DNA of 22,074 nt, taken from IMG/VR virus record IMGVR_UViG_643348545_000012; one strand, given 5' to 3'. The notes under the pieces were generated by a model, which was not told the DNA's origin, did no database searches, and saw only the letters and a program-made list of their open reading frames with translations. This DNA comes from a virus (taxonomy: Duplodnaviria > Heunggongvirae > Uroviricota > Caudoviricetes). Positions 2,110 through 21,428 of the stretch are shown here, piece after piece. The position numbers and the translations under genes are program-made. Each line of letters opens with the position of its first letter. Position 1 is the stretch's first letter.

Positions 2110-2119
2110 AGATATCCTT

Positions 2120-2836
2120 TTAATTAGGTTCAAAAATTTTAAATTCATTCCACGGCAATTTTTTCCAGTTACTGGATGGATCTTTCAACCATGCAGTGAC
2201 TTCCTTTAAATCACGGTTCGCAGTGGCGACGGGGGTATCGTATATCATTAACCATTTTTGTCGGGCGCGAACATAAGCACTGGCATAATCTTCCCATGAA
2301 GCGAAACAATCTTGTGCTCTTTGAGCATTCAGTAATAACACTATCCAGGCCTGGTTTTCATCGCACCAGCCTAAACCGGCGATGCAACGAGTTAAAAAAG
2401 CAGTGCGCATACAGTCAAACGCCAGCCCATCCAGAACCTGGCCTTGTGCTGCCAGTTGTTCGTAAAAATCATGTGGAGAATTACCAAGCCCTGTAGCCCA
2501 GCGCTGTAATATAACGCCAATTTGTTGACGGAAATCTTCGTTGCTTTGGTAAGTTTCTGTTCCTAGCTCTTGTTTAACCTGTAGTGCAAGTTGTTGACGC
2601 TTATCATCAGTCAACTTTAAATCTAACGTGAAGCCATTTACTGACAGTCCATTACGACGAGCAACTATATCACCAATTGCTAATGCCCACTTACGTCTCT
2701 TTGTTGCTCGTCTTTTGTCCTTGATTAGATCCTTTTCTTTTTCTTTAGCAATAAAAGCATCGATTTGTGGTTTGTTTTTTTTGTATCTATAGATAAAAAT
2801 AAATATTGCGACCAGGAGAACAATGATAAGACTCAT
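2120..2836 (-). CDS. DUF1266-like (YbeU/YbeR-like) protein with N-terminal transmembrane helix
   Basis: 238 aa ORF; N-terminus MSLIIVLLVAIFIFIY is hydrophobic; C-terminal half with W/D-rich pattern ending ...WKKLPWNEF resembles my recollection of the DUF1266 family; start codon overlaps the stop of the upstream gene by 1 nt (TAATG), suggesting translational coupling. Confidence 0.6.
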   Translation of the reverse strand: MSLIIVLLVAIFIFIYRYKKNKPQIDAFIAKEKEKDLIKDKRRATKRRKWALAIGDIVARRNGLSVNGFTLDLKLTDDKRQQLALQVKQELGTETYQSNEDFRQQIGVILQRWATGLGNSPHDFYEQLAAQGQVLDGLAFDCMRTAFLTRCIAGLGWCDENQAWIVLLLNAQRAQDCFASWEDYASAYVRARQKWLMIYDTPVATANRDLKEVTAWLKDPSSNWKKLPWNEFKIFEPN

Positions 2837-4050
2837 TATTTTTCAACCTCTGACAGGGGTAAGTAATGAGATGTCTGTAATGTCAAACTCTCTATCTCAA
2901 AGGAAATGTTGCTGATATTTTGACCTGCAAATTGCGGATGCCACTCAGCGCCAGGGAATAACATTTCCGCAGAAGTAGCAACTATAGGGTCAATAGCATT
3001 AAGATAATGTAACTTATCAGGTGCGCTGTGTAACAGTAACCACTGCAACTCCACTGAAGGATTTGTAAAATGTTCTAATAAATGAAAGTTATTATGTAGT
3101 ACGCTTAGTAAAAAACTGGTTTCGTATACTTCCGTTACATATTTCCACCCCTGATATTCAGGTGTATTTTCATAAACAATACCCATACCTTCACAATCAC
3201 TATGTCGAACTGCTTGTGGTGATAATAGTTGCAAAAGAGACAAAACATCGTCCGCATATTTTTTAACTGGATGACGATTTTGCTTACCTTTTATTTGATC
3301 AATTTCAAGTGAATCACCAACAACATTGAGAGCAATAGTAACATGAGGAATATTATTATTATCACGCAAACTGAATAACCGTAATTTATGTTGCTCAATT
3401 TGATTTGCATAATACTCACCATAACCACCGGTAAGATTTTTTCGATCATCAAACTGGCCTACGCAATGTTGCATATGCCATGATTCATAAGCCATTTCAC
3501 GACGAAGGTTCGAATGACTGGCATCAAACTCAACAATTTTTCCGTCTGGCACATCAAGTATTGACTTTACAGTATTTTGTTCACTCGGCTGCCACCCTTT
3601 CTCGCGTCGTTGAAGCATCTTTTCATGCTCTTCTTCACGCATTCTGAACGCAACGTAGCAGGTTATGCGCTGTAGTTTTGATTCCAGACGGGTACCACAT
3701 TTCCTGGAAAGAAATTCCACCAACTCCCGTTCTTTGGTTAATATTTGTTGATGATCGGTTTCGATATAATAAAGTGTCGCAGTTGATACTGAGGCAGTAT
3801 TAAACTTCGATACCAGCCATTCCGGGATTACATCATCATTTTTATTAAACAGTGAATATTCTGCAAGCGAGTTAATTTGTTGCACCATTGGAAAGTCACT
3901 AATTAGCCATCGATAAAAATGGTTGAGTAACCATTTTTGGATGGTCTCATTATCCTGGCGAAACAGACTTCTTTGCAAAATTGCTGTTTTTACTTCCGGG
4001 GCATTAATTACATCCCTTGCATTATAATTCTGGTGAATATTTCCAGTCAT
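2836..4050 (-). CDS. Hypothetical protein (404 aa), first gene of AT-rich three-gene operon
   Basis: Long ORF in track, AT-rich codon usage, divergent from yegQ; no family recognised by eye. Confidence 0.6.
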   Translation of the reverse strand: MTGNIHQNYNARDVINAPEVKTAILQRSLFRQDNETIQKWLLNHFYRWLISDFPMVQQINSLAEYSLFNKNDDVIPEWLVSKFNTASVSTATLYYIETDHQQILTKERELVEFLSRKCGTRLESKLQRITCYVAFRMREEEHEKMLQRREKGWQPSEQNTVKSILDVPDGKIVEFDASHSNLRREMAYESWHMQHCVGQFDDRKNLTGGYGEYYANQIEQHKLRLFSLRDNNNIPHVTIALNVVGDSLEIDQIKGKQNRHPVKKYADDVLSLLQLLSPQAVRHSDCEGMGIVYENTPEYQGWKYVTEVYETSFLLSVLHNNFHLLEHFTNPSVELQWLLLHSAPDKLHYLNAIDPIVATSAEMLFPGAEWHPQFAGQNISNISFEIESLTLQTSHYLPLSEVEK

Positions 4051-4537
4051 AACATCCGCCCGTGTTTATTATATCACTCAAAGCAATAATTGTTGACTAT
4101 AGATTTTTTATCTAAATCAGCATGGTTGCAGGTACATACTCAAGTAAGCCACTCAAGAAAATAACGTAAACTCAATAGTGGCAGCGTCACAAACTTTGGA
4201 AATTATGTCTTATATTTGCAGTTTATTTTAGTGAATAATTGAGATAAATGACATTATTTTACATCCTCAATAATTCAGGCTGTAAGAGGACGGCAAATAC
4301 ATTCATAATTATCAGGGGATGAACATTCAGGAAAGTAGTCAGTATCGTCAACTTTTTCTTTTATCACTACATGAAGATTTCGTGTAGATACTCCCATCTC
4401 TGCCACTTCTCCCCTCACATTTACACTGGAGCTAAACCCGCCGATTGCGCTACAATGCCCGCCCTTAAAGTGGGGGCACTCCCCTAACCGCTTCATCAGG
4501 TGAAGCGGCTCTGACCTGTCATCAGAACGAGAGAATT

Positions 4538-5899
4538 ATGTTTAAACCGGAACTCCTTTCCCCGGCGGGAACGCTGAAAAATATGCGTTACGCTTTCGCT
4601 TATGGCGCAGATGCTGTTTATGCGGGCCAGCCGCGTTACTCCCTGCGTGTACGCAACAACGAATTCAACCACGAAAATCTTCAGCTCGGCATCAATGAAG
4701 CCCACGCGCTGGGGAAAAAGTTTTATGTCGTGGTCAACATTGCACCGCACAACGCCAAGCTGAAAACCTTTATCCGTGACCTGAAACCGGTGGTGGAAAT
4801 GGGGCCGGATGCGCTGATTATGTCCGATCCAGGGCTGATTATGCTGGTGCGTGAGCACTTCCCGGAAATGCCAATCCACCTCTCGGTACAGGCTAACGCC
4901 GTAAACTGGGCGACGGTGAAATTCTGGCAGCAAATGGGTCTGACCCGCGTGATCCTCTCTCGCGAACTGTCACTGGAAGAGATTGAAGAGATCCGCAATC
5001 AGGTGCCGGATATGGAGATCGAAATCTTCGTTCACGGCGCGCTGTGCATGGCCTACTCCGGTCGCTGCCTGCTCTCTGGCTATATCAACAAGCGCGACCC
5101 GAACCAGGGCACCTGCACCAACGCCTGCCGCTGGGAGTATAACGTCCAGGAAGGGAAAGAAGATGACGTCGGCAACATCGTACACAAGTACGAGCCGATT
5201 CCGGTGCAAAATGTTGAGCCGACGCTGGGTATCGGCGCGCCAACCGACAAAGTGTTTATGATCGAAGAAGCCCAGCGTCCGGGCGAGTATATGACCGCGT
5301 TTGAAGATGAGCACGGCACTTACATCATGAACTCGAAAGATCTGCGCGCCATCGCCCATGTTGAACGCCTGACCAAAATGGGCGTGCATTCGCTGAAAAT
5401 CGAAGGCCGTACCAAATCTTTCTACTATTGCGCACGCACCGCGCAGGTTTACCGTAAAGCTATCGATGACGCCGCTGCGGGCAAACCGTTCGATACCAGC
5501 CTGCTGGAAACTCTGGAAGGTCTGGCGCATCGTGGCTATACCGAAGGTTTCCTGCGTCGTCATACCCACGACGATTATCAGAACTACGAATACGGTTATT
5601 CGGTTTCTGACCGTCAGCAGTTTGTTGGTGAGTTTACCGGTGAGCGCAAGGGGGAGCTCGCGGCGGTAGCGGTGAAAAATAAATTCTCCGTTGGCGACAG
5701 CCTTGAGCTGATGACGCCGCAAGGCAACATTAACTTTACCCTTGAGCATATGGAAAACGCCAAAGGTGAAGCGATGCCGGTCGCACCAGGCGATGGTTAT
5801 ACTGTGTGGCTCCCGGTGCCGCAGGATCTTGAGCTAAATTACGCGCTGCTGATGCGTAATTTCTCCGGGGAAACCACGCGTAACCCCCACGGTAAGTGA
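4538..5899 (+). CDS. yegQ: U32-family peptidase-like protein YegQ/TrhP (tRNA hydroxylation-associated)
   Basis: 453 aa ORF beginning MFKPELLSPAGTLKNMRYAFAYGADAVYAGQ with the EIFVHGALCMAYSGRC U32 signature; GAGAG RBS just upstream of the ATG; matches recalled E. coli YegQ in length and sequence. Confidence 0.93.
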   Translation: MFKPELLSPAGTLKNMRYAFAYGADAVYAGQPRYSLRVRNNEFNHENLQLGINEAHALGKKFYVVVNIAPHNAKLKTFIRDLKPVVEMGPDALIMSDPGLIMLVREHFPEMPIHLSVQANAVNWATVKFWQQMGLTRVILSRELSLEEIEEIRNQVPDMEIEIFVHGALCMAYSGRCLLSGYINKRDPNQGTCTNACRWEYNVQEGKEDDVGNIVHKYEPIPVQNVEPTLGIGAPTDKVFMIEEAQRPGEYMTAFEDEHGTYIMNSKDLRAIAHVERLTKMGVHSLKIEGRTKSFYYCARTAQVYRKAIDDAAAGKPFDTSLLETLEGLAHRGYTEGFLRRHTHDDYQNYEYGYSVSDRQQFVGEFTGERKGELAAVAVKNKFSVGDSLELMTPQGNINFTLEHMENAKGEAMPVAPGDGYTVWLPVPQDLELNYALLMRNFSGETTRNPHGK

Positions 5900-5983: not shown

Positions 5984-6070
5984 GCTGAAAAACATAACCC
6001 ATAAAATGCTAGCTGTACCAGGAACCACCTCCTTAGCCTGTGTAATCTCCCTTACACGGGCTTATTTTTT
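5984..6070 (+). ncRNA. cyaR: CyaR (RyeE) Hfq-dependent small RNA, 87 nt, with Rho-independent terminator
   Basis: Sequence gctgaaaaacataacccataaaatgctagctgtaccaggaaccacctccttagcctgtgtaatctcccttacacgggcttatttttt matches the CyaR sequence as I recall it; 3' hairpin (gcctgtgtaa / ttacacgggc) followed by a T-run. Confidence 0.8.
6044..6070. repeat. P2-type attachment core (27 bp, aatctcccttacacgggcttatttttt), left prophage junction; overlaps the cyaR terminator
   Basis: Exact 27-bp direct repeat with 21402-21428; reverse complement equals the P2 att core sequence as I recall it. Confidence 0.75.
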
Positions 6071-6171: not shown

Positions 6172-6390
6172 TTACATCCACATAATTTGCTGCCCTGACG
6201 GCAACGGGTGCGGCCTTACGGCGTGGACTTCTCCCGGCTTCACGATGTATCTCTGTACCGACTCATAAGTGATGAACGTGGCGCTGCAATTCACGTTCTG
6301 GCACTGGTGATAACGCTCTTTTGTCGTGTCAGTGATATAGCGGCTTGTACGCGCATGTGCGGCATGCTGGCATAAAGGACAATGAAACAT
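6172..6390 (-). CDS. ogr: Ogr-type zinc-finger late-gene transcriptional activator (72 aa)
   Basis: Internal Met of the 99-aa ORF gives MFHCPLCQHAAHARTSRYITDTTKERYHQCQNVNCSATF..., a C-x2-C...C-x4-C zinc finger matching P2 Ogr / E. coli OgrK. Confidence 0.9.
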   Translation of the reverse strand: MFHCPLCQHAAHARTSRYITDTTKERYHQCQNVNCSATFITYESVQRYIVKPGEVHAVRPHPLPSGQQIMWM

Positions 6391-6470
6391 CGCGAGCACC
6401 TCTTCCGGTTTTGTTAATGGTGCCATTTTATTTAATTTATCCTTATAAAACAAACAGATAAAACAAAACA

Positions 6471-7634
6471 TTAATCATCATCTTCTGTTTCGTACTCCAC
6501 ATCAGAAAGCCTGACCTCAAGCTCTAAGGACGTCGTGAAGCCGCTATTATTCAGAAAATGTGTCACCTTAGTGATTGTCCAGTCCTGCTCGTCTATGACG
6601 CGCTTAAAGCCTGACACTCTGACCGGTGTTTCCGTGTAAATATCAGCACGACCAGTGGCAAGGCTGATGGAGAACTCCGCAACGCCCCGTTGCAGTTTAT
6701 CCCACTTCGCCTGAGCGGCGCGCATGGCCTGCGCTTTCGTGGCATATACCGTGGTCAGGGCAAAAACGTTGTCAGCTTCACCGGCCATGTATTCACCTTC
6801 GCGCGCTTCCGGTACTTTTGGCGCTTTCTTCTGCGTGACTGGTTTCGCTTTCGGGTGCTCCAGTGCGCGCAGGTGTTTCTCTTTCTTTTTGCGTTTCAGT
6901 TTTACCTTCTGCTTTTGCGGCTTCGGGTCTTTGGTGTGTAACCACTTTGCCGTTACGCCGGTATAGGCTCCACGGTCAGCAATCGCAAAATGATGGCGGT
7001 CGCCGTCGCTGCGGGTTATGGTGACCTGCGGGATTTTTTTACCGCTGGCCGTCACCCCCTGCCCCGCTTTGAGAAACAACAGTTTTCCCATTTTTACCGA
7101 CACCTCACCGCCGTTGCGTTCTGCAAGACGGGTCAGGAATTTCGCATCAGACTCCTGCGACTGGTCGATGTGCGGGATTTTAATTCCGGCCAGTGACGGC
7201 GCGACACTGGCTTCCAGCCTGTTACGGGAGGCTATCGCCTCAACAATCGCACCGAGCGTGGTGTCATGCCATGACCCTTCACGGCGGGAATTGAGCGTCC
7301 CGCGAAAATCTGCACTCCGGGCGCGGATGGTGACCACATCCGGTGCGCCCCGGTGTTCAACCTCATCAACGGTAAATTTCCCTTTGCATACCAGGGCAAA
7401 ACCTTTCCAGCCGATATACACCTTCAGAACAGCACCACGAACCGGCAGTTCGACCTGCCCGTCGGCATCGTTCAGTTCAATATCAAGCTGGTCAGCCTCA
7501 AAGCCCCGGTTATCCGTCAGGGTCATGCTCATCAGACGGTCGCTGATATTGCCGGTAATATCCCTGCTGTCGAGCATCAGCATGTAATCCGGCGTCAGCG
7601 TACTGCCTGCATCAAATGTCAGCGCATCCAGCAT
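6471..7634 (-). CDS. D: P2-like tail protein D (late control gene D product)
   Basis: 387 aa ORF, same length and gene order as P2 gpD (immediately upstream of ogr). Confidence 0.9.
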   Translation of the reverse strand: MLDALTFDAGSTLTPDYMLMLDSRDITGNISDRLMSMTLTDNRGFEADQLDIELNDADGQVELPVRGAVLKVYIGWKGFALVCKGKFTVDEVEHRGAPDVVTIRARSADFRGTLNSRREGSWHDTTLGAIVEAIASRNRLEASVAPSLAGIKIPHIDQSQESDAKFLTRLAERNGGEVSVKMGKLLFLKAGQGVTASGKKIPQVTITRSDGDRHHFAIADRGAYTGVTAKWLHTKDPKPQKQKVKLKRKKKEKHLRALEHPKAKPVTQKKAPKVPEAREGEYMAGEADNVFALTTVYATKAQAMRAAQAKWDKLQRGVAEFSISLATGRADIYTETPVRVSGFKRVIDEQDWTITKVTHFLNNSGFTTSLELEVRLSDVEYETEDDD

Positions 7635-8113
7635 TATCCCGCCCCCGTCATACCCGTGAATCTGGTCGCCACACTGCCAGCCTTACCGATGAGCGATTCC
7701 GCCTGTTTACCGATATCGCCATAAAGCGCGGCCAGTGATTCATCCACGCGGGTGAGCGACAGCGTAAAATCAATTTTCCGGGGTGTGCCGTCTGCAAAGA
7801 AAATACTCCCTGTTTCACTCACCCTGCTGATGACATACATGCCGTAAATCATGCCGGTGCCATCCAGCAACGGCCACGCCCGGCCTTCCTCTGCCATCAG
7901 CCTGAGCGTGGTCATCGTCAGCTTCCCGCCGGTCAGTTCGGGATAAAGCACGCCGGCAAGCGTCATGTTTTCCTCACCCACACCGAGAAACTGAAAGGCA
8001 TCCCGTTTACCGATACGGGAATTTGACGGCCAGCGATAATCTGATTCACGCTGCATGGTCTGGTGTGGCAGCGTCTGGCGCATAAAAACAAACATACCTA
8101 ACGCGAGCATCAT
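7634..8113 (-). CDS. U: P2-like tail protein U
   Basis: 159 aa ORF; position between T and D; stop overlaps the D start (coupled). Confidence 0.88.
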   Translation of the reverse strand: MMLALGMFVFMRQTLPHQTMQRESDYRWPSNSRIGKRDAFQFLGVGEENMTLAGVLYPELTGGKLTMTTLRLMAEEGRAWPLLDGTGMIYGMYVISRVSETGSIFFADGTPRKIDFTLSLTRVDESLAALYGDIGKQAESLIGKAGSVATRFTGMTGAG

Positions 8114-8127
8114 TTTTCGTCACCTCC

Positions 8128-10575
8128 TTAACCGTCATGCATCATGCTGGCACGGGCACGCGCACGTTTATCCCGCTCGTATTTTTCGAGCGCATCCTGT
8201 AACTGGCGGTCAAGCTGTGTCCCCGGCGCAGTACCACCCGTCAGGCTGATGTGATATTCGTTTTTACTCTGGTCCACATAAGAGCGGCCAGCCAGTGCCG
8301 TGACTGGCTGATAAGCCTGATAGCCTGCATAAGAGCTGGTCGCCGGAATATAACCACCGGTGCCATACGTGGCGGCATGAGTTCTGGCGGCGGTCTGGTC
8401 AAGTGTGTCTGACTCTTTGTTGATGACCCCGAGCTTTTCCAGTACCCAGGCAATACCGCTGCGCAGTTTGTTGAACGCATTAAGCGGCAGCATCAGCGCG
8501 TCAGCCAGTGCCTGCCCGAACATGACACCCGTGTCACGGCAACGGTTCAGGGTGTCCTGGGTGGCTTTGACCGGGGCAATCAGGTTTTTAAACCACTGCC
8601 ACGCGGCCTGTAACTTTTCGCCCAGCCAGTCAAACACCGGCTTAAGTGGCATGAACAGTTCCCCCACCGGCGCAAATGCCGCTTTCAGCCCTTCCACCAC
8701 ACCGCCAAAGAATGCGCTGACAGGCTCCCAGTATTTACGGATAAGCAACGCCCCGGCGACAATGGCGGCCACCACGGCCACAACCGGCCAGCTAATCGCC
8801 CCGATGGCCGTCATAACAGCACTGCCAACCGTCGTGAAGATTGCCCCCATTGCGCCTGCTGCCGCGATAATGGCATTGATGCCGGTGATAACCGGCCAGG
8901 CTACAAGACCAATGGCACCGATGATGCCAGTCAGCGCCAGTGCGCCACCGGCAATGAGGCCGGTGGTTGACGCCAGTGATTTGTTTTTCTGGATCCAGCC
9001 GTCGAGTTTTAGCACATACTTTGTGGCTGTCTGCGTGAGATTACGCAGTGCGCCTTCCTGCTGGTCAAACAGGTCAGTCCCCACCGCCTCATAAGCGGAC
9101 TGAAACTCCTTAAAGTCACCGCCGAGGTTGTCCTGCATGATATTTACCAGCTCGGCGGTCTTCCCGTCTGAGGCTTTAAACGCAGCGGTCAGTTTGTCCA
9201 GCTTTCCGGTTGAGGCGGCAGTCATCAGCACGGCGGCGGCTGAGCTGGCCTCTTCCCCGAAAATAGTTTTCATGTATTCAGCCTGCTGGGCAGTACCGAG
9301 CCGGTTTTTCTCAAAACTGGCCTGCATTTCTTTCAGAATGGTAAATACTGGTCGGGTGTTTCCCTTGCTGTCTGAGGTTTTCACACCAAGCTCTTTCAGT
9401 GCATCCCACGCTTTTCCCGTCGGTGCCTGCAGGCGGCTTAACACGGCACGGCTTCCCGTCCCCGCCATTGAGCCTGTGATTTTTGCATCATGCAGCGCCC
9501 CGACCATTGCGGCGGTTTCTTCAATGCTGACACCGGCATTTTTTGCCACAGGTGCGGCATAGGTCAGCGCATCGCTCATGCCGTCAAAATCGGCGGCGGT
9601 TTTGTTCATCGTCATGGAGAGAACATCCCCGATATGAGCGACCTTATCGTTTGAAAGCTGAAAGGCGGATTTCATCCCCATCAGCAGGGCGGCGTTTTCT
9701 TCCATCGTGCGACGGTTCGCCAGCGCCATATTCAGCGTGACCGGCGTTGCCGCCTGAATGGCATCAACATCCCCACCGGCTTTTGCAATGATAATCTGCG
9801 CACCGGCTGCATCATCCGCCGAGGCGGCGGTGTTGTCGCCGAGCTGGCGCGCCTGTTTGCGGAGCGCGGCCATTTCGGCGGAGTCTTTTGCCACGCCGAG
9901 CACAGCCTGTAATTCTGAGTTTTTCTGCGCAAACTCATAACCGGGCATCAGCAGCTTAACTCCGGCCATCGTTCCCGCCGCCGCAATCCCCACACCGGCA
10001 GCGCCCACTGAGGCCATATTTCCGGCCAGTTCCTTTCCGGCCTGATAACGCTGTTTGACTGCGTTAAGTTTTGCCTGTTGCGCGCTGACACGCGCCAGCG
10101 CGTCACGCTGCCGGTTAAGCTGCGCGGTGGTTTCACTGATACGGTTTTTCAGCCCCTGCTCATCATGTGCAAGATTGCGGGTATTAATTCCCACAGCAGC
10201 CAGTTCCCGCTGCTGGCGTTTAACGGAATCCGTCAGGCGGTTATATTTCGCCTGTAAGTCCTCCGCCGCTCGCTTTGCGGATTCCAGCACTTTCGCCTGA
10301 GCACGGGTCGGACGTTCGGTATTTTTAAACTGTGTGGCAAGGGCTTCGGCTTCCAGCCGTGCCTTCTCAAGTGCATGACCAGTCACGGCGAGCTGTGCGC
10401 TGGTCTTGCGAAATCCCTCAATACGGGATGCGTGACCGTTCAGCTCGCGCAGTGATTTTTGTGTGTCCCGGATATCCCCCGACAGCGACTTGCTCGCTGT
10501 ACGGATGGATTTAAACGGGCGGGATGCCTGGTCAACAGCCCTGAGCAATACCTGTAATTTTACATTGTTACTCAT
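8128..10575 (-). CDS. T: Tail tape-measure protein (P2 gpT-like)
   Basis: 815 aa ORF with coiled-coil-rich N-terminus and Gly/Ala-rich hydrophobic central segment, typical of tape-measure proteins; lies directly downstream of E/E'. Confidence 0.92.
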   Translation of the reverse strand: MSNNVKLQVLLRAVDQASRPFKSIRTASKSLSGDIRDTQKSLRELNGHASRIEGFRKTSAQLAVTGHALEKARLEAEALATQFKNTERPTRAQAKVLESAKRAAEDLQAKYNRLTDSVKRQQRELAAVGINTRNLAHDEQGLKNRISETTAQLNRQRDALARVSAQQAKLNAVKQRYQAGKELAGNMASVGAAGVGIAAAGTMAGVKLLMPGYEFAQKNSELQAVLGVAKDSAEMAALRKQARQLGDNTAASADDAAGAQIIIAKAGGDVDAIQAATPVTLNMALANRRTMEENAALLMGMKSAFQLSNDKVAHIGDVLSMTMNKTAADFDGMSDALTYAAPVAKNAGVSIEETAAMVGALHDAKITGSMAGTGSRAVLSRLQAPTGKAWDALKELGVKTSDSKGNTRPVFTILKEMQASFEKNRLGTAQQAEYMKTIFGEEASSAAAVLMTAASTGKLDKLTAAFKASDGKTAELVNIMQDNLGGDFKEFQSAYEAVGTDLFDQQEGALRNLTQTATKYVLKLDGWIQKNKSLASTTGLIAGGALALTGIIGAIGLVAWPVITGINAIIAAAGAMGAIFTTVGSAVMTAIGAISWPVVAVVAAIVAGALLIRKYWEPVSAFFGGVVEGLKAAFAPVGELFMPLKPVFDWLGEKLQAAWQWFKNLIAPVKATQDTLNRCRDTGVMFGQALADALMLPLNAFNKLRSGIAWVLEKLGVINKESDTLDQTAARTHAATYGTGGYIPATSSYAGYQAYQPVTALAGRSYVDQSKNEYHISLTGGTAPGTQLDRQLQDALEKYERDKRARARASMMHDG

Positions 10576-10995
10576 TCGTGTTTCCGCTTCGCCGGAGCGC
10601 CTTTTCGCGCCATGTGATGAGTTCGGTCAGGCTCATGGGATACAGTTCTGATGGCGGCCAGTGAAATATCACTGCCACATCCGCCATCAGGTCATCGACC
10701 GACAGATTTTTCGGAAACGTCACTGCACCGAGTTCGGCGACAAAAAACCGACCACCTTACCGGCCAGCGCCACAAGGTCAGGCAGTTCCAGCGCGGCGAC
10801 TTCCTGCTCGGTCAGCATCGGTGCCGTCATGCGCGGCAGCACCTTAATCAGTGCATCGACTTCGGAGTTTGCAACCGCAGCCAGACTGACACCGCGCAGC
10901 GTCCCGGCATTGGGTTTCATCAGCGTGACCTGTTCGATAACCTGCTCACCACGTTTGACCGGATTTTCCAGGGTAATGACATTTTCTTTGTTCAT
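10568..10995 (-). CDS. E': E+E' fusion produced by programmed -1 ribosomal frameshift at T_TTT_TTG (reverse complement of 10741-10747); E' extension ends at TAA 10568-10570, overlapping the T start
   Basis: Slippery heptamer read directly; the -1 frame is open from the slip site to 10568 and encodes ...FFVAELGAVTFPKNLSVDDLMADVAVIFHWPPSELYPMSLTELITWREKALRRSGNTNE; frame arithmetic is consistent with a -1 shift; matches the known P2 E/E' mechanism. Confidence 0.7.
10720..10995 (-). CDS. E: Tail assembly chaperone E (P2 gpE-like), 91 aa
   Basis: ORF MNKENVITLENPVKRGEQ...GFLSPNSVQ; position between FII and T; contains slippery heptamer near its 3' end. Confidence 0.88.
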   Translation of the reverse strand: MNKENVITLENPVKRGEQVIEQVTLMKPNAGTLRGVSLAAVANSEVDALIKVLPRMTAPMLTEQEVAALELPDLVALAGKVVGFLSPNSVQ

Positions 10996-11051: not shown

Positions 11052-11570
11052 TCACAGGCCGATATTTCGGCGGTGTTGCTCCAGCCGGTCGACGCCGTTC
11101 ACCTTCTCAATCATGTTGATGGTGTCGATTTCGACCAGCTCCTTACCGTCCATCGTCAGCCGGAAATAAGTACAAATCACCGGGAGTTTCGATTCGGTAT
11201 CCTCTCCCTGTTTACCCTCTCCGGTGTCGACTTCTTTCTGACGCCCACGCATGACCACTTCGACGGCCACCGTTTCGCCGGTATCGTCGCGCTGGTAAGA
11301 ACCAGCAAAACGAATCGGTACGGCATCAGCACTGGTTGCAGCGTAAAGCTCCCAGATAACCGAATCCGGGAAACCCCCGAGCGACCACTCCATTGACAGC
11401 GCATCGTCATCAAGGCCGAGGTCTACCGGTGCGCTGCCGTTCATCCCCGCACCGCGATAATTTTCGAGCTTACGGGTCAGTTTTGGCAGCGTGACGGACG
11501 TTGCAACGCCCTGATAGCTGTAGCCGTTCAGAAAGACATTCATGTATTTGAGTTTGCGCGGCATTGCCAT
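11052..11570 (-). CDS. FII: Major tail tube protein (P2 gpFII-like)
   Basis: 172 aa ORF, gene order sheath-tube-E-T as in P2. Confidence 0.9.
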   Translation of the reverse strand: MAMPRKLKYMNVFLNGYSYQGVATSVTLPKLTRKLENYRGAGMNGSAPVDLGLDDDALSMEWSLGGFPDSVIWELYAATSADAVPIRFAGSYQRDDTGETVAVEVVMRGRQKEVDTGEGKQGEDTESKLPVICTYFRLTMDGKELVEIDTINMIEKVNGVDRLEQHRRNIGL

Positions 11571-11582
11571 CGGTCAGGCTCC

Positions 11583-12773
11583 TTAATTGCTGTTAACCGA
11601 GGTGACCAGATTTGCCAGGTATTTATCGGTAATACGCTGGCGCAGGGTCAGGTTTTCGAGAGGAGGCACCGGGGTATAGTCGTAGTCGATATACAGTTTT
11701 CCGGCCTTGAGGGTTTCCGCATCGTTGGATTCTTCGCTGAACCAGCAGGTCGCATCCACGATATAGCCGTTTGTTTTCAGCTCTCGGAATTTGGCATTGA
11801 TGCCGTCAACGATGTCGCGAATCAGCGTTGCGGTGATGGGCTTGTCCACCGCCCACATGTGCGCCTCAGCCATCGTGTCGGCCAGCACCTGCGCGGTGCG
11901 GGTGTAGTTTTCAAAGAGGAACAGCGGGTCATCAGAGCAGGTACGGTTACCCCAGAAGCGGAAACCGTCACGGCGAATCAGCGTTGTGACGCCTGACTCG
12001 TTAAGCAGGTCAGCATCGGTGCCGGACTCCTGCAAATCCCAGAATACGGACGCGCTGATGCCGGTAACACCGTTTACCCCGACGTTGGACAGCGTTTTAT
12101 GCCAGCCCTGCTCCTGGTCGATTTTAGCGCGCAGACCCAGCGCACGGGCGGTGGCATACGCGGTGGCGGTGGTACTGGTGACCGTATCCCATGCGAGGAA
12201 ATCCGGCCAGATGACCATCAGCTCACGCTGGCTGAAATTCTGGCGGTAGGCTTTCACCTCGGAAATGGTCTTACAGCCCCATGCGCTGATATATCCGAAA
12301 GCGCGCAGCTTCTGACAGACGGATGCCAGTGCAACAGCCACCTCTTTGGTATCCAGTCCCGGCACACCGAGAATACGCGGTTTAACACCGGTTACCGACT
12401 CCGCCGCCAGCAGGGCTTTTAGTCCGGTGTACTGACCGTTTTCGTCGGTGGTGCCGATGATATTGGAAACGGTCTGCGCGAGTTTCGTTTCCTCGTCATC
12501 ACCGGTGCCGTCTTCCACGCGCACGACAACGGTGACCGGTTTTGACTGGTCAGCGATGGCCTGCAACGATGCCGCCAGCGTGCCTTTTTTACCGGCCTTT
12601 GCAATTGCGCTTTGCACATTGGTAATCAGCACCGGTTTATTGAGGGGGAAGGTTTCCGCATCCGCATCGCTGGCCGTGCAGACCATGCCGACAATGGCAG
12701 TGGATACGGTGGAAATGACGCGGGTGCCGTCGTTAATCTCCAGCACCTGCACGCCATGATGATAGTCACTCAT
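11583..12773 (-). CDS. FI: Tail sheath protein (P2 gpFI-like)
   Basis: 396 aa ORF beginning MSDYHHGVQVLEINDG, same length and position as P2 gpFI. Confidence 0.92.
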   Translation of the reverse strand: MSDYHHGVQVLEINDGTRVISTVSTAIVGMVCTASDADAETFPLNKPVLITNVQSAIAKAGKKGTLAASLQAIADQSKPVTVVVRVEDGTGDDEETKLAQTVSNIIGTTDENGQYTGLKALLAAESVTGVKPRILGVPGLDTKEVAVALASVCQKLRAFGYISAWGCKTISEVKAYRQNFSQRELMVIWPDFLAWDTVTSTTATAYATARALGLRAKIDQEQGWHKTLSNVGVNGVTGISASVFWDLQESGTDADLLNESGVTTLIRRDGFRFWGNRTCSDDPLFLFENYTRTAQVLADTMAEAHMWAVDKPITATLIRDIVDGINAKFRELKTNGYIVDATCWFSEESNDAETLKAGKLYIDYDYTPVPPLENLTLRQRITDKYLANLVTSVNSN

Positions 12774-12869
12774 CCGTTTAACTCCGTGGTTAATGGGTGC
12801 AACTATTTTCTGTTGGGCAGTGCATGAGACGCTATTTGACCTGACTGGTCAGTGGATGAAACAACAGAT

Positions 12870-12898
12870 AAAGAAAAGGCGGGCAATTCGCCCGCCTG
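12870..12898 (-). terminator. Rho-independent terminator (hairpin GGCGGGC-aattc-GCCCGCC followed on the minus strand by TTTTCTTTAT), separating the cargo module from the FI late operon
   Basis: Perfect GC-rich 7-bp stem at 12880-12898 with T-rich tract on the minus strand. Confidence 0.55.
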
Positions 12899-12952
12899 TC
12901 CTGATTTGTACTCACTCATTTTCCGCCTGACAATTTACATAGCCCAAATGCT

Positions 12953-12975
12953 ATCAAATCTGACAGTCTGCTTTG
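12953..12975. repeat. Site A: atcaaatctgacagtctgctttg, copy 1 of a ~22-bp putative recombination site
   Basis: Shares the exact 11-mer ctgacagtctg plus flanks with sites at 15262-15284 (direct, 21/23) and 15384-15405 (inverted). Confidence 0.6.
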
Positions 12976-13103
12976 AGCGAAAAGTGGACATTAGAGTTAC
13001 AAAAGCAAGTTTAAATCATCCAAAATATTACAATGTCCTTATCTATCTGATATCGTTATAATAAAAAGCTCCTGAATATAATCGATAGTAGGTGGTTATT
13101 TCC

Positions 13104-13481
13104 ATGAAATCAATTTTAGAGGTTTTTACTCAAGGAAATACTAAAGAAAAACTGGCTGTTATCGCCGATCTCACAACCATTGCGGGAATATCGATTGCAA
13201 CTATTATTGCTGGTTTGTTAACCCTAGTTGCAAAAACAGATAAACTAGATGTTGGAAATCTGTTTGGAGTTGTCATAATATCTCTGCTCGGATTGGCTGG
13301 TGTTTGCTGTTTTGTGGCCTTATTTATTTGGGTTATAACCCAAATGTCTAAACCATGGGGAACACCTCGGGGGGTTCAGCCCTTAGTTAAGTGTGCTATT
13401 TCCCTTATCTTTATCTGTATGTTTTTGCTGGCTGTCTTTACATTTTATGAGTTTATTTCTTCGATGAGCATACGCTATTGA
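13104..13481 (+). CDS. Small integral membrane protein (about 125 aa, 3 predicted TM helices), cargo gene
   Basis: ORF in track (13092..13481, likely ATG at 13104 with aggtgg RBS); three long hydrophobic stretches; AT-rich. Confidence 0.55.
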   Translation: MKSILEVFTQGNTKEKLAVIADLTTIAGISIATIIAGLLTLVAKTDKLDVGNLFGVVIISLLGLAGVCCFVALFIWVITQMSKPWGTPRGVQPLVKCAISLIFICMFLLAVFTFYEFISSMSIRY

Positions 13482-13503
13482 ATATAAAATCAGCCCCCAT
13501 AAC

Positions 13504-14088
13504 TTAAAAGAGACCTTCTATATCGACTTCAATGCCCAAATAACGGACTGTGCTTTCCAGTTTCTTATGGCCCAACAGAAGTTGGATCACCCGGAGACTC
13601 TTGGTTTTCTTGTAGATTAAGTAAGGTTTTGTTCTTCTCATGGAATGTGTGCTGTACAGCGAATCTTCGAGACCAAGCTTTTCTACCCACCCATGAAAAA
13701 TTCGGTTGTATTGCCGGGTTGATATATGGTGGTTAGTTCCGACCCGAGAGCGGAACAGGAAGCCTTTACTATGCCAGTTGCCGAGCTTTATCAATGCAGT
13801 AACCGCTTCCCTTGTCCCTTTGGTTATCTCAAATTGGACAGGGCTGCCGGTTTTCTGTTGCAACACCGTTGCTCTGCTTGAGACAGAACTGCCATATGCA
13901 GCATCTGATACTTTGAGTTTGACCAAATCACAGCCCCGTAGCTTAGTGTCCAAAGCCATGTTGAACAGAGCTAGATCGCGTGTTTTACCTTCCAACTCAA
14001 GTCTAATCCGGATCCCCCAGATATGAGATATCTGAAGTGGCCTTTTTTGACCGATGGTACGGTCTTTATTCCACGGTGACGTTTTCAT
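13504..14088 (-). CDS. Short tyrosine recombinase (FimB/FimE-sized, about 194 aa)
   Basis: C-terminus HSMRRT...LLGHKKLESTVRYLGIEVD carries the box II H-x-x-R, second His and nucleophile Tyr; earlier TKLRGCDL supplies a candidate box I Arg. The track ORF starts at 14190, but the ATG at 14088 has an AGGAG RBS 8 nt upstream and gives a protein the size of FimB/FimE. Confidence 0.75.
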   Translation of the reverse strand: MKTSPWNKDRTIGQKRPLQISHIWGIRIRLELEGKTRDLALFNMALDTKLRGCDLVKLKVSDAAYGSSVSSRATVLQQKTGSPVQFEITKGTREAVTALIKLGNWHSKGFLFRSRVGTNHHISTRQYNRIFHGWVEKLGLEDSLYSTHSMRRTKPYLIYKKTKSLRVIQLLLGHKKLESTVRYLGIEVDIEGLF

Positions 14089-14194
14089 ATTCAAATCTCC
14101 TGCAATGTGGGAGATTTGAGTATGGTTGTCTCTCAAGAGCGAAAATAAGTCAACTATCACTAGTTGTTGCGCATGTACGTATTCTGTCAATTAA

Positions 14195-15037
14195 TTATTG
14201 ACAATCATCAATTCTGGAATGATCAAAATCATCATATCGAATTATAGTCTGGTTGACTGTATCTATTGTTGGTGTCATTTCTGTTATAATATCCTGATAA
14301 CCTAAAGAGTTAAATACATTTACTAAGGCCTCACACCGAAGGGCCGTAGCAATTACAAAATTATAAATTGCCAGCCGTTTATTTTCTTGTTTAACTGCAA
14401 GAATGAATTCGATAGCAGTATTTTCATCACTTTGGATTGCATTATATAGAGATACTATATTTACCATATCATCAGAGAATGTATGTATTGAATCACAAAG
14501 GGGAACGTAATGGGCATGATAGTGTGTTTCCCAGCCAATTAATTCAAAAAGTTTTCTGGTTCCTGGATATTCAGGTGTATTTGGCCACAATCTATTAAAT
14601 AGATCAGTTAGTTCTTTTCCCATGCGAATCCTTTCATTTGCTGCTGGATTAGTCATTCCTTTGGATTTTAAACACTCCAGCCACCGTTTTCCATTACTAT
14701 GAACTAATTTCTTACTAGCCTTGAGTAATGCTTGTGCATTTTCGCCATCATCTATTGCTATATAAAATTGATTGGCAGCCTGTTCTATTATAACCCTAGC
14801 TAATACTTCCGATGCTGAAAAGGCTCCTATATTCAAAGAAGAGATAGCCTGATTACTAAGTTCATTCAGTACATTAAAGTACTGTAAGACCATCAATTTT
14901 TGTTCCACACCCTTTAGGTTGTCTATTTTATTTTTATGCTCCTCAAATTTTGCATGGATATATTTATTTATCGCGGCTATTTTTTTTACATCTTCGTCAA
15001 GATCAAACGGGCAACGTCCAAACAATTCTTTTTTCAT
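14195..15037 (-). CDS. Hypothetical cytoplasmic protein (280 aa), cargo gene upstream of the recombinase
   Basis: ORF with AGGAG RBS 7 nt upstream of ATG; AT-rich; no recognisable motif (no RT YxDD, no clear nuclease or HEPN motif). Confidence 0.6.
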   Translation of the reverse strand: MKKELFGRCPFDLDEDVKKIAAINKYIHAKFEEHKNKIDNLKGVEQKLMVLQYFNVLNELSNQAISSLNIGAFSASEVLARVIIEQAANQFYIAIDDGENAQALLKASKKLVHSNGKRWLECLKSKGMTNPAANERIRMGKELTDLFNRLWPNTPEYPGTRKLFELIGWETHYHAHYVPLCDSIHTFSDDMVNIVSLYNAIQSDENTAIEFILAVKQENKRLAIYNFVIATALRCEALVNVFNSLGYQDIITEMTPTIDTVNQTIIRYDDFDHSRIDDCQ

Positions 15038-15075
15038 ATATTTCTCCTGTTGTACAAGCTTCCATAAGTTGGCAG

Positions 15076-15110
15076 ATTATACACTGAAGATTACCTATAA
15101 ATAGCTGTGC
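15076..15110 (-). promoter_or_regulatory. Candidate sigma70 promoter for the 280-aa cargo gene (perfect TATAAT on the minus strand at 15081-15076; weak -35)
   Basis: Reverse complement of attata at 15076-15081, about 38 nt upstream of the ATG at 15037; -35 element poor, so speculative. Confidence 0.3.
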
Positions 15111-15261
15111 GGGATAGCAGATCAGTGCAAGAAGTACAACCAAGTGAATGTGCGTATTCAGATACCTGGCCTAACGTTCGCGATAGCCGTCCCCTGCACG
15201 AAGCCATATATTAGATGTATTAGCTCAGACCTTATCTGACAGGTTGAGTAGGTAGAATCTA

Positions 15262-15284
15262 ATCAAAGCTGACAGTCTGGTTTG
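15262..15284. repeat. Site B: atcaaagctgacagtctggtttg, direct copy of site A
   Basis: 21 of 23 positions identical to site A; read directly. Confidence 0.6.
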
Positions 15285-15383
15285 GACTGTGAGTTCAACC
15301 GATGGATGCAACACACAGCGATCTACGGACATTACTAGCATAGCTGTGTATTAATCATCGGGAAGCAGGTCAGTCCGCTCCTA

Positions 15384-15405
15384 GCACAGAGCAGACTGTC
15401 AGATT
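15384..15405. repeat. Site C: inverted copy of the site (reverse complement aatctgacagtctgctctgtgc); also part of a 10-bp-stem hairpin tagcacagag...ctctgtgcta (15382-15423)
   Basis: Reverse complement matches site A at 20 of 22 positions; lies 47 bp downstream of the G stop codon. Confidence 0.6.
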
Positions 15406-15457
15406 AGGCTTTACTCTGTGCTATAGATACGTTAGCTCACTCCAGAGATCATACAAC

Positions 15458-20603: not shown

Positions 20604-21317
20604 ATGGTCAGCTATAATGTGACTAATGTGTGGGGGCTAATCGTTTTTTTCCTTTGTAGCTTTGCAGTATTAGCATTTTTTAGCTTTGGTAAAAGTAACC
20701 TTATGAGGCTTATTGCACATTATTTCAATTTTGGATATTCAGACAAAAAATTAAAAAGACTTGACCGCGAGTGGCGCGACATTCAACTATTTAAAATAAT
20801 TAATGGAATCAATGTATCAGGCATTGAAAATGTGAGAATGATACAGCAGGGACTGATTGATGGAAAACTAAAAACATCGTATTTTTCCCTTACTCGCATC
20901 TGGGGTGACATAACAAAACCACCACACATAATTAAAACAATAATTGTAATTCTGGCCAGTATTTTTTACATTCTCCTCGCATGTTACATACACAACGAAC
21001 AATCCGTTATAGTAAGGGATGCCATAGGCATACCATATAAAAACATGATGTACTATGTTTATAGTGACAAAGTTCTTTTATCCTTCAAAAATAAAGCAGT
21101 TGAATTTAATAAAACTTATAGCCTTGCCGATTGCAAGAGACTGCAAAACGTATTTATAAAAGACACACTTCCTGAGATCGCCTGCAATAAGCTCTTACAG
21201 CTAAACGAGGAGGACTCCGAATGGTTAAGCCAGGAGATTAAAGATAATAACAGTCACAAAAAAGCATTATTAATACTATCCCTGAAGCCGAGAGTGTCCA
21301 CACAGTGTCCACAGTAG
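20604..21317 (+). CDS. Hypothetical AT-rich membrane protein (237 aa, two hydrophobic segments), divergent from V; prophage cargo
   Basis: ORF with AGGAG RBS 6 nt upstream of ATG; very AT-rich relative to adjacent tail genes; TM-like segments VWGLIVFFLCSFAVLAFFSF and IIKTIIVILASIFYILLACYI. Confidence 0.55.
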   Translation: MVSYNVTNVWGLIVFFLCSFAVLAFFSFGKSNLMRLIAHYFNFGYSDKKLKRLDREWRDIQLFKIINGINVSGIENVRMIQQGLIDGKLKTSYFSLTRIWGDITKPPHIIKTIIVILASIFYILLACYIHNEQSVIVRDAIGIPYKNMMYYVYSDKVLLSFKNKAVEFNKTYSLADCKRLQNVFIKDTLPEIACNKLLQLNEEDSEWLSQEIKDNNSHKKALLILSLKPRVSTQCPQ

Positions 21318-21401: not shown

Positions 21402-21428
21402 AATCTCCCTTACACGGGCTTATTTTTT
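21402..21428. repeat. Second copy of the 27-bp P2-type att core (right prophage junction)
   Basis: Exact direct repeat of 6044-6070; followed by a hairpin gggcttat...ataagccc. Confidence 0.7.

Follow-up and report, generated by a model that had tools for sequence, protein, structure and literature searches.

The window, a stretch of 22,074 nucleotides, carries a P2-like prophage remnant with tail genes in the order FI-FII-E-E'-T-U-D. The remnant is a deletion derivative that differs from phage P2 in lacking int through S, and it has lost the early, head, lysis, and R/S genes. Gene E is positioned between genes FII and T, and all three are encoded on the minus strand (Table 1). The product of gene T has the same length as gpT of P2.

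Table 1. Features of the E/E' region and the adjoining tail genes.
Feature	Position	Strand	Remarks
Gene FII, tail tube protein, 172 aa	11052..11570	minus	Directly upstream of E; Pfam PF04985 Phage_tube, E = 9.6e-60; P2 annotation
Gene E, tail assembly protein, 91 aa	10995..10720	minus	0-frame; ATG at 10995, TGA 10722..10720; open reading frame list and translation
TAA in the -1 frame	10757..10759	minus	Five codons ahead of the -1 decoding start; closes the E' frame upstream
Shine-Dalgarno-like AGGTGGT	10751..10757	minus	3 nt 5' of the heptamer; candidate 5' stimulator
Slippery heptamer T_TTT_TTG	10747..10741	minus	P-site TTT 10746..10744; A-site TTG 10743..10741
E' extension, 57 codons and stop	10568..10741	minus	-1 frame; VAELGAVTFPKNLSVDDLMADVAVIFHWPPSELYPMSLTELITWREKALRRSGNTNE; TAA 10570..10568; translation
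E+E' fusion, 142 aa	join(10995..10741, 10741..10568)	minus	Translation
Ribosome-binding site of T, containing GGA	about 10583..10588	minus	
ATG of tape measure gene T	10575..10573	minus	Overlaps the E' stop within ATGAGTAA (10575..10568)
Gene T, tape measure protein, 815 aa	8128..10575	minus	Pfam PF10145 PhageMin_Tail, E = 1.8e-45

Gene E ends with the codons GGT TTT TTG TCG CCG AAC TCG GTG CAG TGA. The first three of these (10749..10741) contain the heptamer, which is in X_XXY_YYZ phase relative to E and falls within the overlap of E and E'; exactly six sense codons lie between position 10741 and the TGA, as the initial annotation had counted. The -1 frame continues from the heptamer as GTC GCC GAA and ends with GAG TAA. 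It had been described as open for about 51 codons, which is its length from the GTG overlapping the E stop; counted from the heptamer, 57 open codons follow before any stop. The terminal TAA overlaps the start of T as proposed, and the span assigned to the feature, 10568-10995, is the exact extent of E+E'. The E' frame of P2 has been reported to reach 37 nt back into E (PMC3931495), in agreement with the position of the upstream -1 TAA here.

The site is interpreted as the one at which the P2 tail genes E and E' are joined by programmed -1 ribosomal frameshifting, with a probability of about 93%. This reading is based on the sequence anatomy, the near-identity to the P2 site, and the conservation of nucleotides and protein across the family. 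Most ribosomes would read E to the TGA and release the 91-residue gpE. In a minority of cases, the P-site tRNA-Phe on UUU and the A-site tRNA-Leu on UUG would shift one base in the 5' direction and re-pair with UUU UUU. Decoding would restart at GUC, 57 residues would be added, and translation would stop at the UAA overlapping the start of T. The resulting E+E' would have its first 85 residues in common with E. By analogy to gpG/gpGT of phage lambda, the shared N-terminal part may bind the tape measure protein T, whereas the E' domain may recruit the tube protein FII, and the ratio of the chaperones E and E+E' would be fixed by the frameshift efficiency. The defective copy here may also be translated into the fusion. 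The tryptic junction peptide predicted for tandem -1 slippage is VVGFLVAELGAVTFPK, an additional U in the mRNA or slippage in the P site only would yield VVGFFVAELGAVTFPK, and the peptide VVGFLSPNSVQ would be specific to E.

The E/E' region is 98.7% identical in nucleotide sequence to that of P2 over a 559-nt match. Four substitutions in 441 nt distinguish it from P2 (AF063097), none of them in or near the slip site: two change residues of E (D10E and S29N), and the remaining two are synonymous, one each in E and E'. E has 89 of its 91 residues in common with P2 gpE. Translation of the -1 frame and its alignment to P2 E+E', which had been suggested as a check, showed that the 57-residue extension is fully identical to that of P2. 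The record AF063097 annotates a joined CDS, 'gpE+E'; -1 frameshift; essential tail protein', and its 'site of -1 translational frameshift' falls on the matching base. The junction predicted for P2, ...VVGFL/VAELG... (slash at the change of frame), is that of the deposited protein AAD03292.1 (UniProt O64312, 'Tail assembly protein E''). In P2 (AF063097; AAD03291.1, AAD03292.1), the same genes also lie between FII and T, the heptamer and its phase are the same, the number of codons separating it from the E stop is unchanged, and the end of E' likewise overlaps the beginning of T. PMC3091744 and PMC3931495 describe a -1 frameshift at TTTTTTG of P2 that gives rise to a 91-aa E and a 142-aa E+E'. 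The likeness to the P2 E/E' arrangement noted at the outset extends to the anatomy, the joined CDS of the P2 annotation, and the published heptamer and product sizes. That the P2 fusion is made and essential is stated in the note of GenBank AF063097 and in secondary citations (PMC3091744, PMC5009743, PMC3931495).

Residues 7-85 of E match Pfam PF10109 Phage_TAC_7 (E = 3.8e-12, 46.5 bits, cut-off 25), and E matches phrog_103, 'tail protein' (E = 1e-42). In the fusion, residues 104-139 match Pfam PF06528 Phage_P2_GpE (E = 1.2e-21, 76.3 bits, cut-off 23), and the match to phrog_1756 covers residues 82-142, spanning the E/E' junction. NCBIfam contains no model matching the E+E' fusion, and a profile search against solved structures found no relevant relative, the best match being an unrelated protease (E = 0.068). 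The exact E protein sequence is present on at least 1000 contigs.

The heptamer and the extension are conserved in relatives. In-frame TTTTTTN is found in 13 of 13 related phages and at 78 of 80 loci from genomes of different bacterial species (91 of 93 in total); six loci that failed the automated scan were judged by hand inspection. The extension is 55-58 codons long in the 13 phages, which include Burkholderia phages and reach down to about 46% protein identity. Among all relatives, with 74 bacterial loci scored for length, it has 40-62 codons, and 53-62 in all but two; the 40-codon extension is that of locus L080. The initial annotation had made its reading depend on conservation of the extension, and E' is kept in all relatives examined. 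The six Ts are invariant, and third positions nearby have an entropy of about 1.3 bits. Past the heptamer, the high-entropy positions move from the third positions of E to those of E', that is, the codon periodicity switches frame. The residues encoded at the heptamer are conserved, and so are their codons: glycine is GGT in 100% of the sequences (30% expected), phenylalanine is TTT in 100% (62% expected), and leucine is TTG in 78% (10% expected) and TTA in the remainder. Strong synonymous constraint is also present at E' codons 52-57, where it is expected because the ribosome-binding site and start of T overlap them. In the relatives, too, E' ends next to or within the start of the tape measure gene, with ATGAGTAA or ATGAGTGA as the equivalent sequence. 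Of 5426 complete E. coli genomes, 1583 (about 29%) contain the P2-type site.

Alternatively, E' could be a separate small gene giving rise to a free peptide of about 40-51 residues, initiated either from the GTG at 10723..10721 or from the ATG conserved in DDLMAD. The open reading frame list contains a 51-aa frame from this GTG (10568..10723) that overlaps the E stop as GTGA, RefSeq/PGAP calls it as a gene of its own, the 51-aa sequence is recorded on about 1000 contigs, and several phage records call a 39-40-aa frame from an internal Met or Val. However, independent initiation of E' is not supported by 89 distinct relatives, in which start codons are rare early in the E' frame. The GTG, which P2 also has, is common to only two of the 89, 76 have no E'-frame start before codon +13, and only 13 have one ahead of LSVDDL. 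Ahead of the internal Met, conservation is 50-96% over residues +13 to +18 (L-S/T-V-D-D-L) and reaches at least 88% at five of these positions, and the E'-frame periodicity is already present there. Furthermore, the phrog_1756 match begins ahead of the junction, E' of P2 has been reported to be without a ribosome-binding site (PMC3931495), and a separate gene leaves the invariant in-phase T6 unexplained. An independently initiated E' is therefore very improbable.

Transcriptional slippage, in which RNA polymerase would add one U within T6 and generate the junction ...GFFVAELG..., is likewise highly unlikely. In its favour, the bases concerned form a homopolymer, T7G or T7C occurs in more distant P2-like phages, those of Stenotrophomonas and Xanthomonas (PMC3931495), and the genomic in-frame variant QTN08932.1 contains the exact GFFVAELG junction, so that such a fusion is at least encodable. 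However, the run is exactly six Ts long and always in X_XXY_YYZ phase in 91 loci, and a ribosome-directed Shine-Dalgarno-like AGGTG is conserved at synonymous sites just 5' of it. Runs of six are short for efficient slippage of E. coli RNA polymerase, which counts against this explanation. Published work and the GenBank record call the event translational, and the residue at the deposited junction is Leu rather than Phe.

Least probable of all, and rejected, is that base composition and the protein-level constraint on Gly-Phe-Leu in E happened to produce both the heptamer and the open -1 frame, without any recoding: although G-F-L is conserved in the protein and TTTTTTG on its own is not uncommon (11 copies in the window versus 7.5 expected), Gly is always GGT (30% background), Leu is always TTG or TTA whereas elsewhere about 63-75% of leucines are encoded by CTG, the -1 frame matches a curated Pfam family (E = 1.2e-21) and is conserved down to about 46% identity, and, among 37 in-frame X_XXY_YYZ heptamers in the 21 open reading frames of the window, this is the sole one whose -1 product outruns the 0-frame product, with 57 open -1 codons compared with 33 for the next best, which ends far before its 0-frame stop.

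Programmed ribosomal frameshifting, the preferred reading, raises the matter of efficiency. UUUUUUG is weak in E. coli reporters, with 0.12% frameshifting alone and 0.25-0.77% with the stimulators of IS911 or IS3 (PMC4066793 supplement), and PMC5009743 puts the shift efficiency of P2 at 2-3 times that of lambda. The heptamer alone does not account for the P2 level. Single-sequence folding of the downstream RNA predicts a small hairpin 1 nt past the heptamer (10739..10726) and a 10+6 bp hairpin (10690..10648), with an overall z-score of -2.7. The two predicted hairpins show no covariation beyond that of shuffled sequences, and a stimulatory downstream structure was rejected as unsupported: the covariation term of RNAalifold for 11 relatives was positive, which is a penalty, and pair counting in 89 relatives gave 84.1% paired versus 84.1% shuffled and a covariation of 0.085 versus 0.085. 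This result agrees with the reports of P2-type sites without downstream structures (PMC3091744). The arms of the larger hairpin do show some synonymous constraint.

Upstream of the heptamer, the Shine-Dalgarno-like motif is located at exactly the same place in 84% of the 89 relatives and within 6-17 nt in 93%, compared with 13.6% for control windows. It reads AGGTGAT or AGGTGGT in 74 of the 89. The motif forms the strongest anti-Shine-Dalgarno duplex between -200 and +170, with an energy of -12.2 kcal/mol here and a mean of -10.9 over the 89 relatives. The synonymous sites of the motif are constrained, with Lys encoded by AAG in 98% (40% expected) and Val by GTG in 94% (44% expected). AGGTG ends 6 nt ahead of the second motif base, within the motif and spacing criterion of PMC4066793. 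It is possible, if somewhat doubtful, that AGGTGRT (10757..10751), which is conserved at synonymous sites across Enterobacterales prophages, pairs with the 3' end of 16S rRNA in elongating ribosomes and tunes the ratio of E to E+E', so that the heptamer would not be the sole driver. Such pairing would explain how a heptamer with an efficiency of 0.1-0.8% in reporters reaches the several-fold higher level reported for P2. The motif is a cheap, testable lead on how a heptamer with little activity in reporters could function in its natural context. No mention of a Shine-Dalgarno-like element of P2 was found in the literature searched, which did not include Christie et al. 2002 and Xu et al. 2004.

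The initial annotation regarded the site as support for purifying selection on the tail module. The cassette is under selection across the phage family. However, selection on the copy here cannot be deduced, because the prophage has lost int through S. Its E' is one synonymous base away from that of P2, and therefore a recent origin alone may explain why it is intact. The site may never be used in its present host.

The site is that of the programmed -1 frameshift previously published for P2; its identification is correct but ordinary, as the site has been known since 2002. It has little weight as a discovery, since it is annotated in the P2 reference genome. The primary description of the P2 E/E+E' site is reportedly that of Christie et al. 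2002 (J Bacteriol 184:6522). The value of the finding lies in annotation: RefSeq/PGAP does not join the two frames but annotates a 'phage tail assembly protein' and, separately, a 51-aa 'GpE family phage tail protein', and therefore the true 142-aa protein is absent from most records.

The same organization is present in other Peduoviridae. Phage 186 (orf51/orf52, gene H), PSP3 (orf23/23.5), and further E/E' pairs, among them those of Burkholderia phages KS5, KS14, KL3, AP3, and Musica, have an in-phase TTTTTTG towards the 3' end of the E homologue and a -1 extension of 55-58 codons. Their extensions contain the motif DDLMADIAVIFHWPPSE...WR.KA, and the E' stop lies at the start of the tape measure gene or overlaps it (PMC3091744). 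The relatives differ in their protein identity (46-80%), the longer N-termini of E (99-130 aa), the distance from the heptamer to the E stop (6, 12, 14, or 16 codons), and the final base of the heptamer, which may be A or C.

The frameshift signals of dnaX and the IS911/IS3 family likewise contain a conserved element complementary to the anti-Shine-Dalgarno sequence upstream of X_XXY_YYZ. However, the spacing quoted for dnaX-type stimulation is 9-14 nt, whereas that of the P2-type site, 6 nt, is at the short limit, and because of it the effect of the element could even be neutral or negative. In contrast to the dnaX and IS911/IS3 signals compared, the P2-type site has no supported 3' structure.

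In phage lambda, gpG/gpGT occupies the same slot between the major tail and tape measure genes, and two products with a common N-terminus are generated by low-level -1 frameshifting. However, the lambda heptamer is G_GGA_AAG instead of the P2-type TTTTTTG, and the P2 and lambda products are reported to have no amino-acid sequence similarity (PMC3931495). The lambda chaperones have been proposed to hold the tape measure protein and recruit tube subunits in a ratio determined by the frameshift efficiency; the tape measure is bound through the N-terminal domain and the tube protein through the domain added by frameshifting, and the virion contains neither product (PMC5009743). By analogy, P2 E and E' are presumed to bind the corresponding partners. 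The analogy to lambda G/GT drawn in the initial annotation has a published counterpart, as the P2 frameshift is placed alongside that of G/GT in PMC5009743.

The slip site lies in a compact block of tail genes on the minus strand of the window, identified from the ORF listing and Pfam matches (see the table). The 3' end of E, which encodes a tail assembly protein, reads GGT TTT TTG TCG CCG AAC TCG GTG CAG TGA. The heptamer therefore has the X_XXY_YYZ phase and precedes the stop by six sense codons, exactly as the initial annotation placed it. Translation of the -1 frame shows that it is open for 57 codons, from GTC 10741..10739 to TAA 10570..10568; the "about 51 further codons" counted previously are those past the E stop. 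The terminating TAA is positioned within ATGAGTAA, the ATG of which (10575..10573) is the T start, confirming the overlap of the E' stop with the start of T. On the upstream side, the -1 frame is shut by TAA 10759..10757, in agreement with the reported reach of P2 E' 37 nt back into E (PMC3931495).

Coordinates of the tail genes, the elements of the slip site and the surrounding features in the window
Feature	Position	Strand	Basis
FI sheath	11583..12773	minus	PF04984 + PF17482
FII tube	11052..11570	minus	PF04985
91-aa ORF (E)	10720..10995	minus	ORF listing, translation
T tape measure	8128..10575	minus	PF10145
U	7634..8113	minus	PF06995
D	6471..7634	minus	PF05954
SD-like element AGGTGGT	10757..10751	minus	
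Heptamer TTTTTTG	10747..10741	minus	sequence read
Larger downstream hairpin	10648-10690	minus	folding
P2 att core	6044..6070		exact 27-nt match
P2 att core	21402..21428		exact 27-nt match
ogr	6172..6471		
yegQ-like gene	4538-5899		
DUF5677 protein	14195-15037		
Integrase-family fragment	13504-14190		
129-aa ORF	13092-13481		no Pfam matches

The bare heptamer is common: TTTTTTG is found 11 times in the window, where 7.5 would be expected. A scan of 21 ORFs of the window (6510 codons) gave 37 in-frame X_XXY_YYZ heptamers, of which only that of E leads into a -1 frame extending beyond the 0-frame stop. The others are followed by at most 33 open -1 codons, all ending far ahead of the stop of their own gene.

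Two Pfam families match the predicted 142-aa fusion E+E' above their curated cut-offs: Phage_TAC_7 over residues 7-85 and Phage_P2_GpE over residues 104-139. The fusion is also matched by three PHROG "tail protein" families (103, 1756 and 6416). The alignment to PHROG 1756 begins at residue 82 and thus spans the junction. Across the 561-nt region, identity is 98.7% to phage P2 and 97% or higher to 70-odd Peduovirus records. The P2 record contains a joined CDS, [quoted passage not shown], and a misc_feature, "site of -1 translational frameshift", at the base matching the heptamer of the window. These annotations, together with the identity, support the P2 E/E' arrangement proposed initially. 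Over 441 aligned bases the window differs from P2 by four substitutions, of which two non-synonymous and one synonymous are in E and one synonymous is in E'. The junction predicted for P2, ...VVGFLVAELG... (joined between L and V), is identical to that of the deposited P2 protein (AAD03292.1 / NP_046780.1 / UniProt O64312, "Tail assembly protein E'"). In P2, a -1 frameshift is stated to occur at TTTTTTG, giving E of 91 aa and E+E' of 142 aa (PMC3091744). Judged from its sequence, the feature corresponds to this published, already known P2 E/E+E' programmed -1 frameshift.

Twelve related phage loci, with nucleotide identities of 66-99%, were fetched and together with the window provide 13 sequences. 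TTTTTTG is present in 13/13, counting one with TTTTTTC, in phase with the E homologue and 6-16 codons ahead of its stop. In all 13, the -1 ORF that follows has 55-58 codons and a stop abutting or overlapping the tape measure start, showing that the extension is conserved; the identity of the fusion proteins reaches down to about 46%. A scan of bacterial genomes, one per species, yielded 80 loci, and its six initial failures were checked by hand. In-phase TTTTTTN is present in 78 of these loci, with the last base mostly G, A in 19, and C in one. One exception (L086, Enterobacter sp. EA-1, about 1423) contains T5 and further frame disruptions, and appears to be a decayed or mis-assembled copy. 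In the other (L084, a Symbiopectobacterium MAG, about 1449), E and E' are in a single frame. In one E. coli genome, a 142-aa fusion (QTN08932.1) is encoded in frame, with the junction GFFVAELG, as from a T7 run.

Across 89 distinct sequences, the six T's are invariant, and the E third positions of the 15 upstream codons have a mean entropy of 1.28 bits. The entropy peaks move from E to E' third positions directly past the site. The codons at the site are GGT for Gly (100% vs 30% background of the same genes), TTT for Phe (100% vs 62%), and always TTG or TTA for Leu (TTG 78% vs 10% expected, with CTG dominant elsewhere). The p-values for codon choice take no account of phylogeny, and the data are readable only as a contrast with neighbouring codons.

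An unlikely alternative is that E' is a separate gene with its own start and a product of about 51 aa. RefSeq/PGAP starts a "GpE family phage tail protein" of 51 aa at a GTG overlapping the E stop, and this sequence is recorded on about 1000 contigs. However, the GTG is found in only 2 of the 89 relatives, and in 76 of them the E' frame lacks any ATG, GTG or TTG ahead of codon +13. The residues LSVDDL, from +13 to +18, are conserved with E'-frame periodicity. The database annotation of the E. coli PCN033 locus (L013, 11838-11993, equivalent to window 10568-10723) presents E' as a free-standing 51-aa protein. Of 5426 complete E. coli genomes, 1583 contain the region, and the joined 142-aa product of the window allele is absent from a collection of 15 billion proteins. 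Transcriptional slippage in the T run, which would also make the fusion, is disfavoured by the run length fixed at six, the fixed phase, the conserved ribosome-directed SD-like element upstream, and the Leu at the deposited P2 junction. Coincidence is excluded by the chance scan, the identity to P2, and the family-wide conservation.

The two att cores bound a 15.4-kb element. The one at 6044..6070 adjoins ogr and the yegQ-like peptidase U32 gene. Inward of the one at 21402..21428 are the P' arm and the terminal ~47 nt of int, after which the sequence jumps into an orf30-like ORF, entering its 3' part near P2 coordinate 9545. This deletion junction near 21282, joining the int 3' end to the orf30-like 3' part, is covered by 0 of 5426 complete E. 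coli genomes. With the junction in the orf30-like ORF, the element keeps V-W-J-I-H-G, FI-FII-E-E'-T-U-D, and ogr as P2-length ORFs. It is without int, C, cox, B, A, the head and lysis genes, R, and S; the immunity and replication genes are deleted. The frameshift cassette is intact within this deleted element, but it may be neither expressed nor selected in the host, leaving the initial claim of purifying selection on the tail module unsupported for this copy. The observation of the site is confirmed and the remaining interpretation supported.

Where P2 has Z/fun between G and FI, window 12800-15450 contains different cargo of low GC (0.34-0.44), made up of the DUF5677 protein, the integrase-family fragment, and the 129-aa ORF; E. 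coli PCN033 annotates the same cargo. The host-side flank (1-4200) is low in GC (0.36-0.45), and its minus strand encodes three proteins: DUF4034 (715 aa), DUF1266 (238 aa), and a PcfJ-like one (404 aa). This flank may represent a distinct island beside the yegQ-like gene.

In E. coli reporters, UUUUUUG shifts at 0.118% when no stimulator is present; the value is 0.247% in the context of IS911 and rises to 0.765% when the IS3 pseudoknot is supplied (supplement of PMC4066793). The P2 frameshift level has been put at 2-3 times that of lambda (PMC5009743), and the heptamer alone leaves the gap between the weak reporter values and the P2 level unexplained. Folding predicts two downstream hairpins, and no covariation support for either was found among the 89 relatives relative to shuffled controls. 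The larger predicted hairpin (CTGATGGCGG...CCGCCATCAG, 10+6 bp, E' codons about +18 to +31) would enclose the conserved Met codon; its arms, with covariation not above shuffles, contain several constrained synonymous sites (CCA, TCA, GTG, and CAC).

The SD-like AGGTGGT is positioned 3 nt 5' of the heptamer, and is the strongest complement of the anti-SD of 16S rRNA from -200 to +170 (-12.2 kcal/mol; mean of -10.9 over 89 relatives). AGGTGAT or AGGTGGT is present in 74/89 relatives, and an SD-like motif is exactly at this place in 84% and within 6-17 nt in 93%, compared with 13.6% of control windows. The G at -9 is conserved in 98%, despite the residue varying among K, Q, E, R, and M, and synonymous choice favours AAG (98% vs 40% expected) and GTG (94% vs 44%). 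The corresponding interval of more distant phages contains GGAG or GAGG. AGGKG at 6-17 nt is listed as experimentally stimulatory by Sharma et al. (PMC4066793); the dnaX-type stimulation spacing of 9-14 nt given in a review puts the E/E' spacing at the short edge. It is possible, at somewhat below even odds, that the SD-like element stimulates the shift or tunes the E : E+E' ratio. No report linking an SD to E+E' was found in the literature searched, and the synonymously conserved element is the sole lead beyond that literature. The likeness to the lambda tail chaperone pair G/GT pointed out initially is drawn in PMC5009743, in which lambda is a parallel system and the P2 efficiency is 2-3 fold that of lambda.
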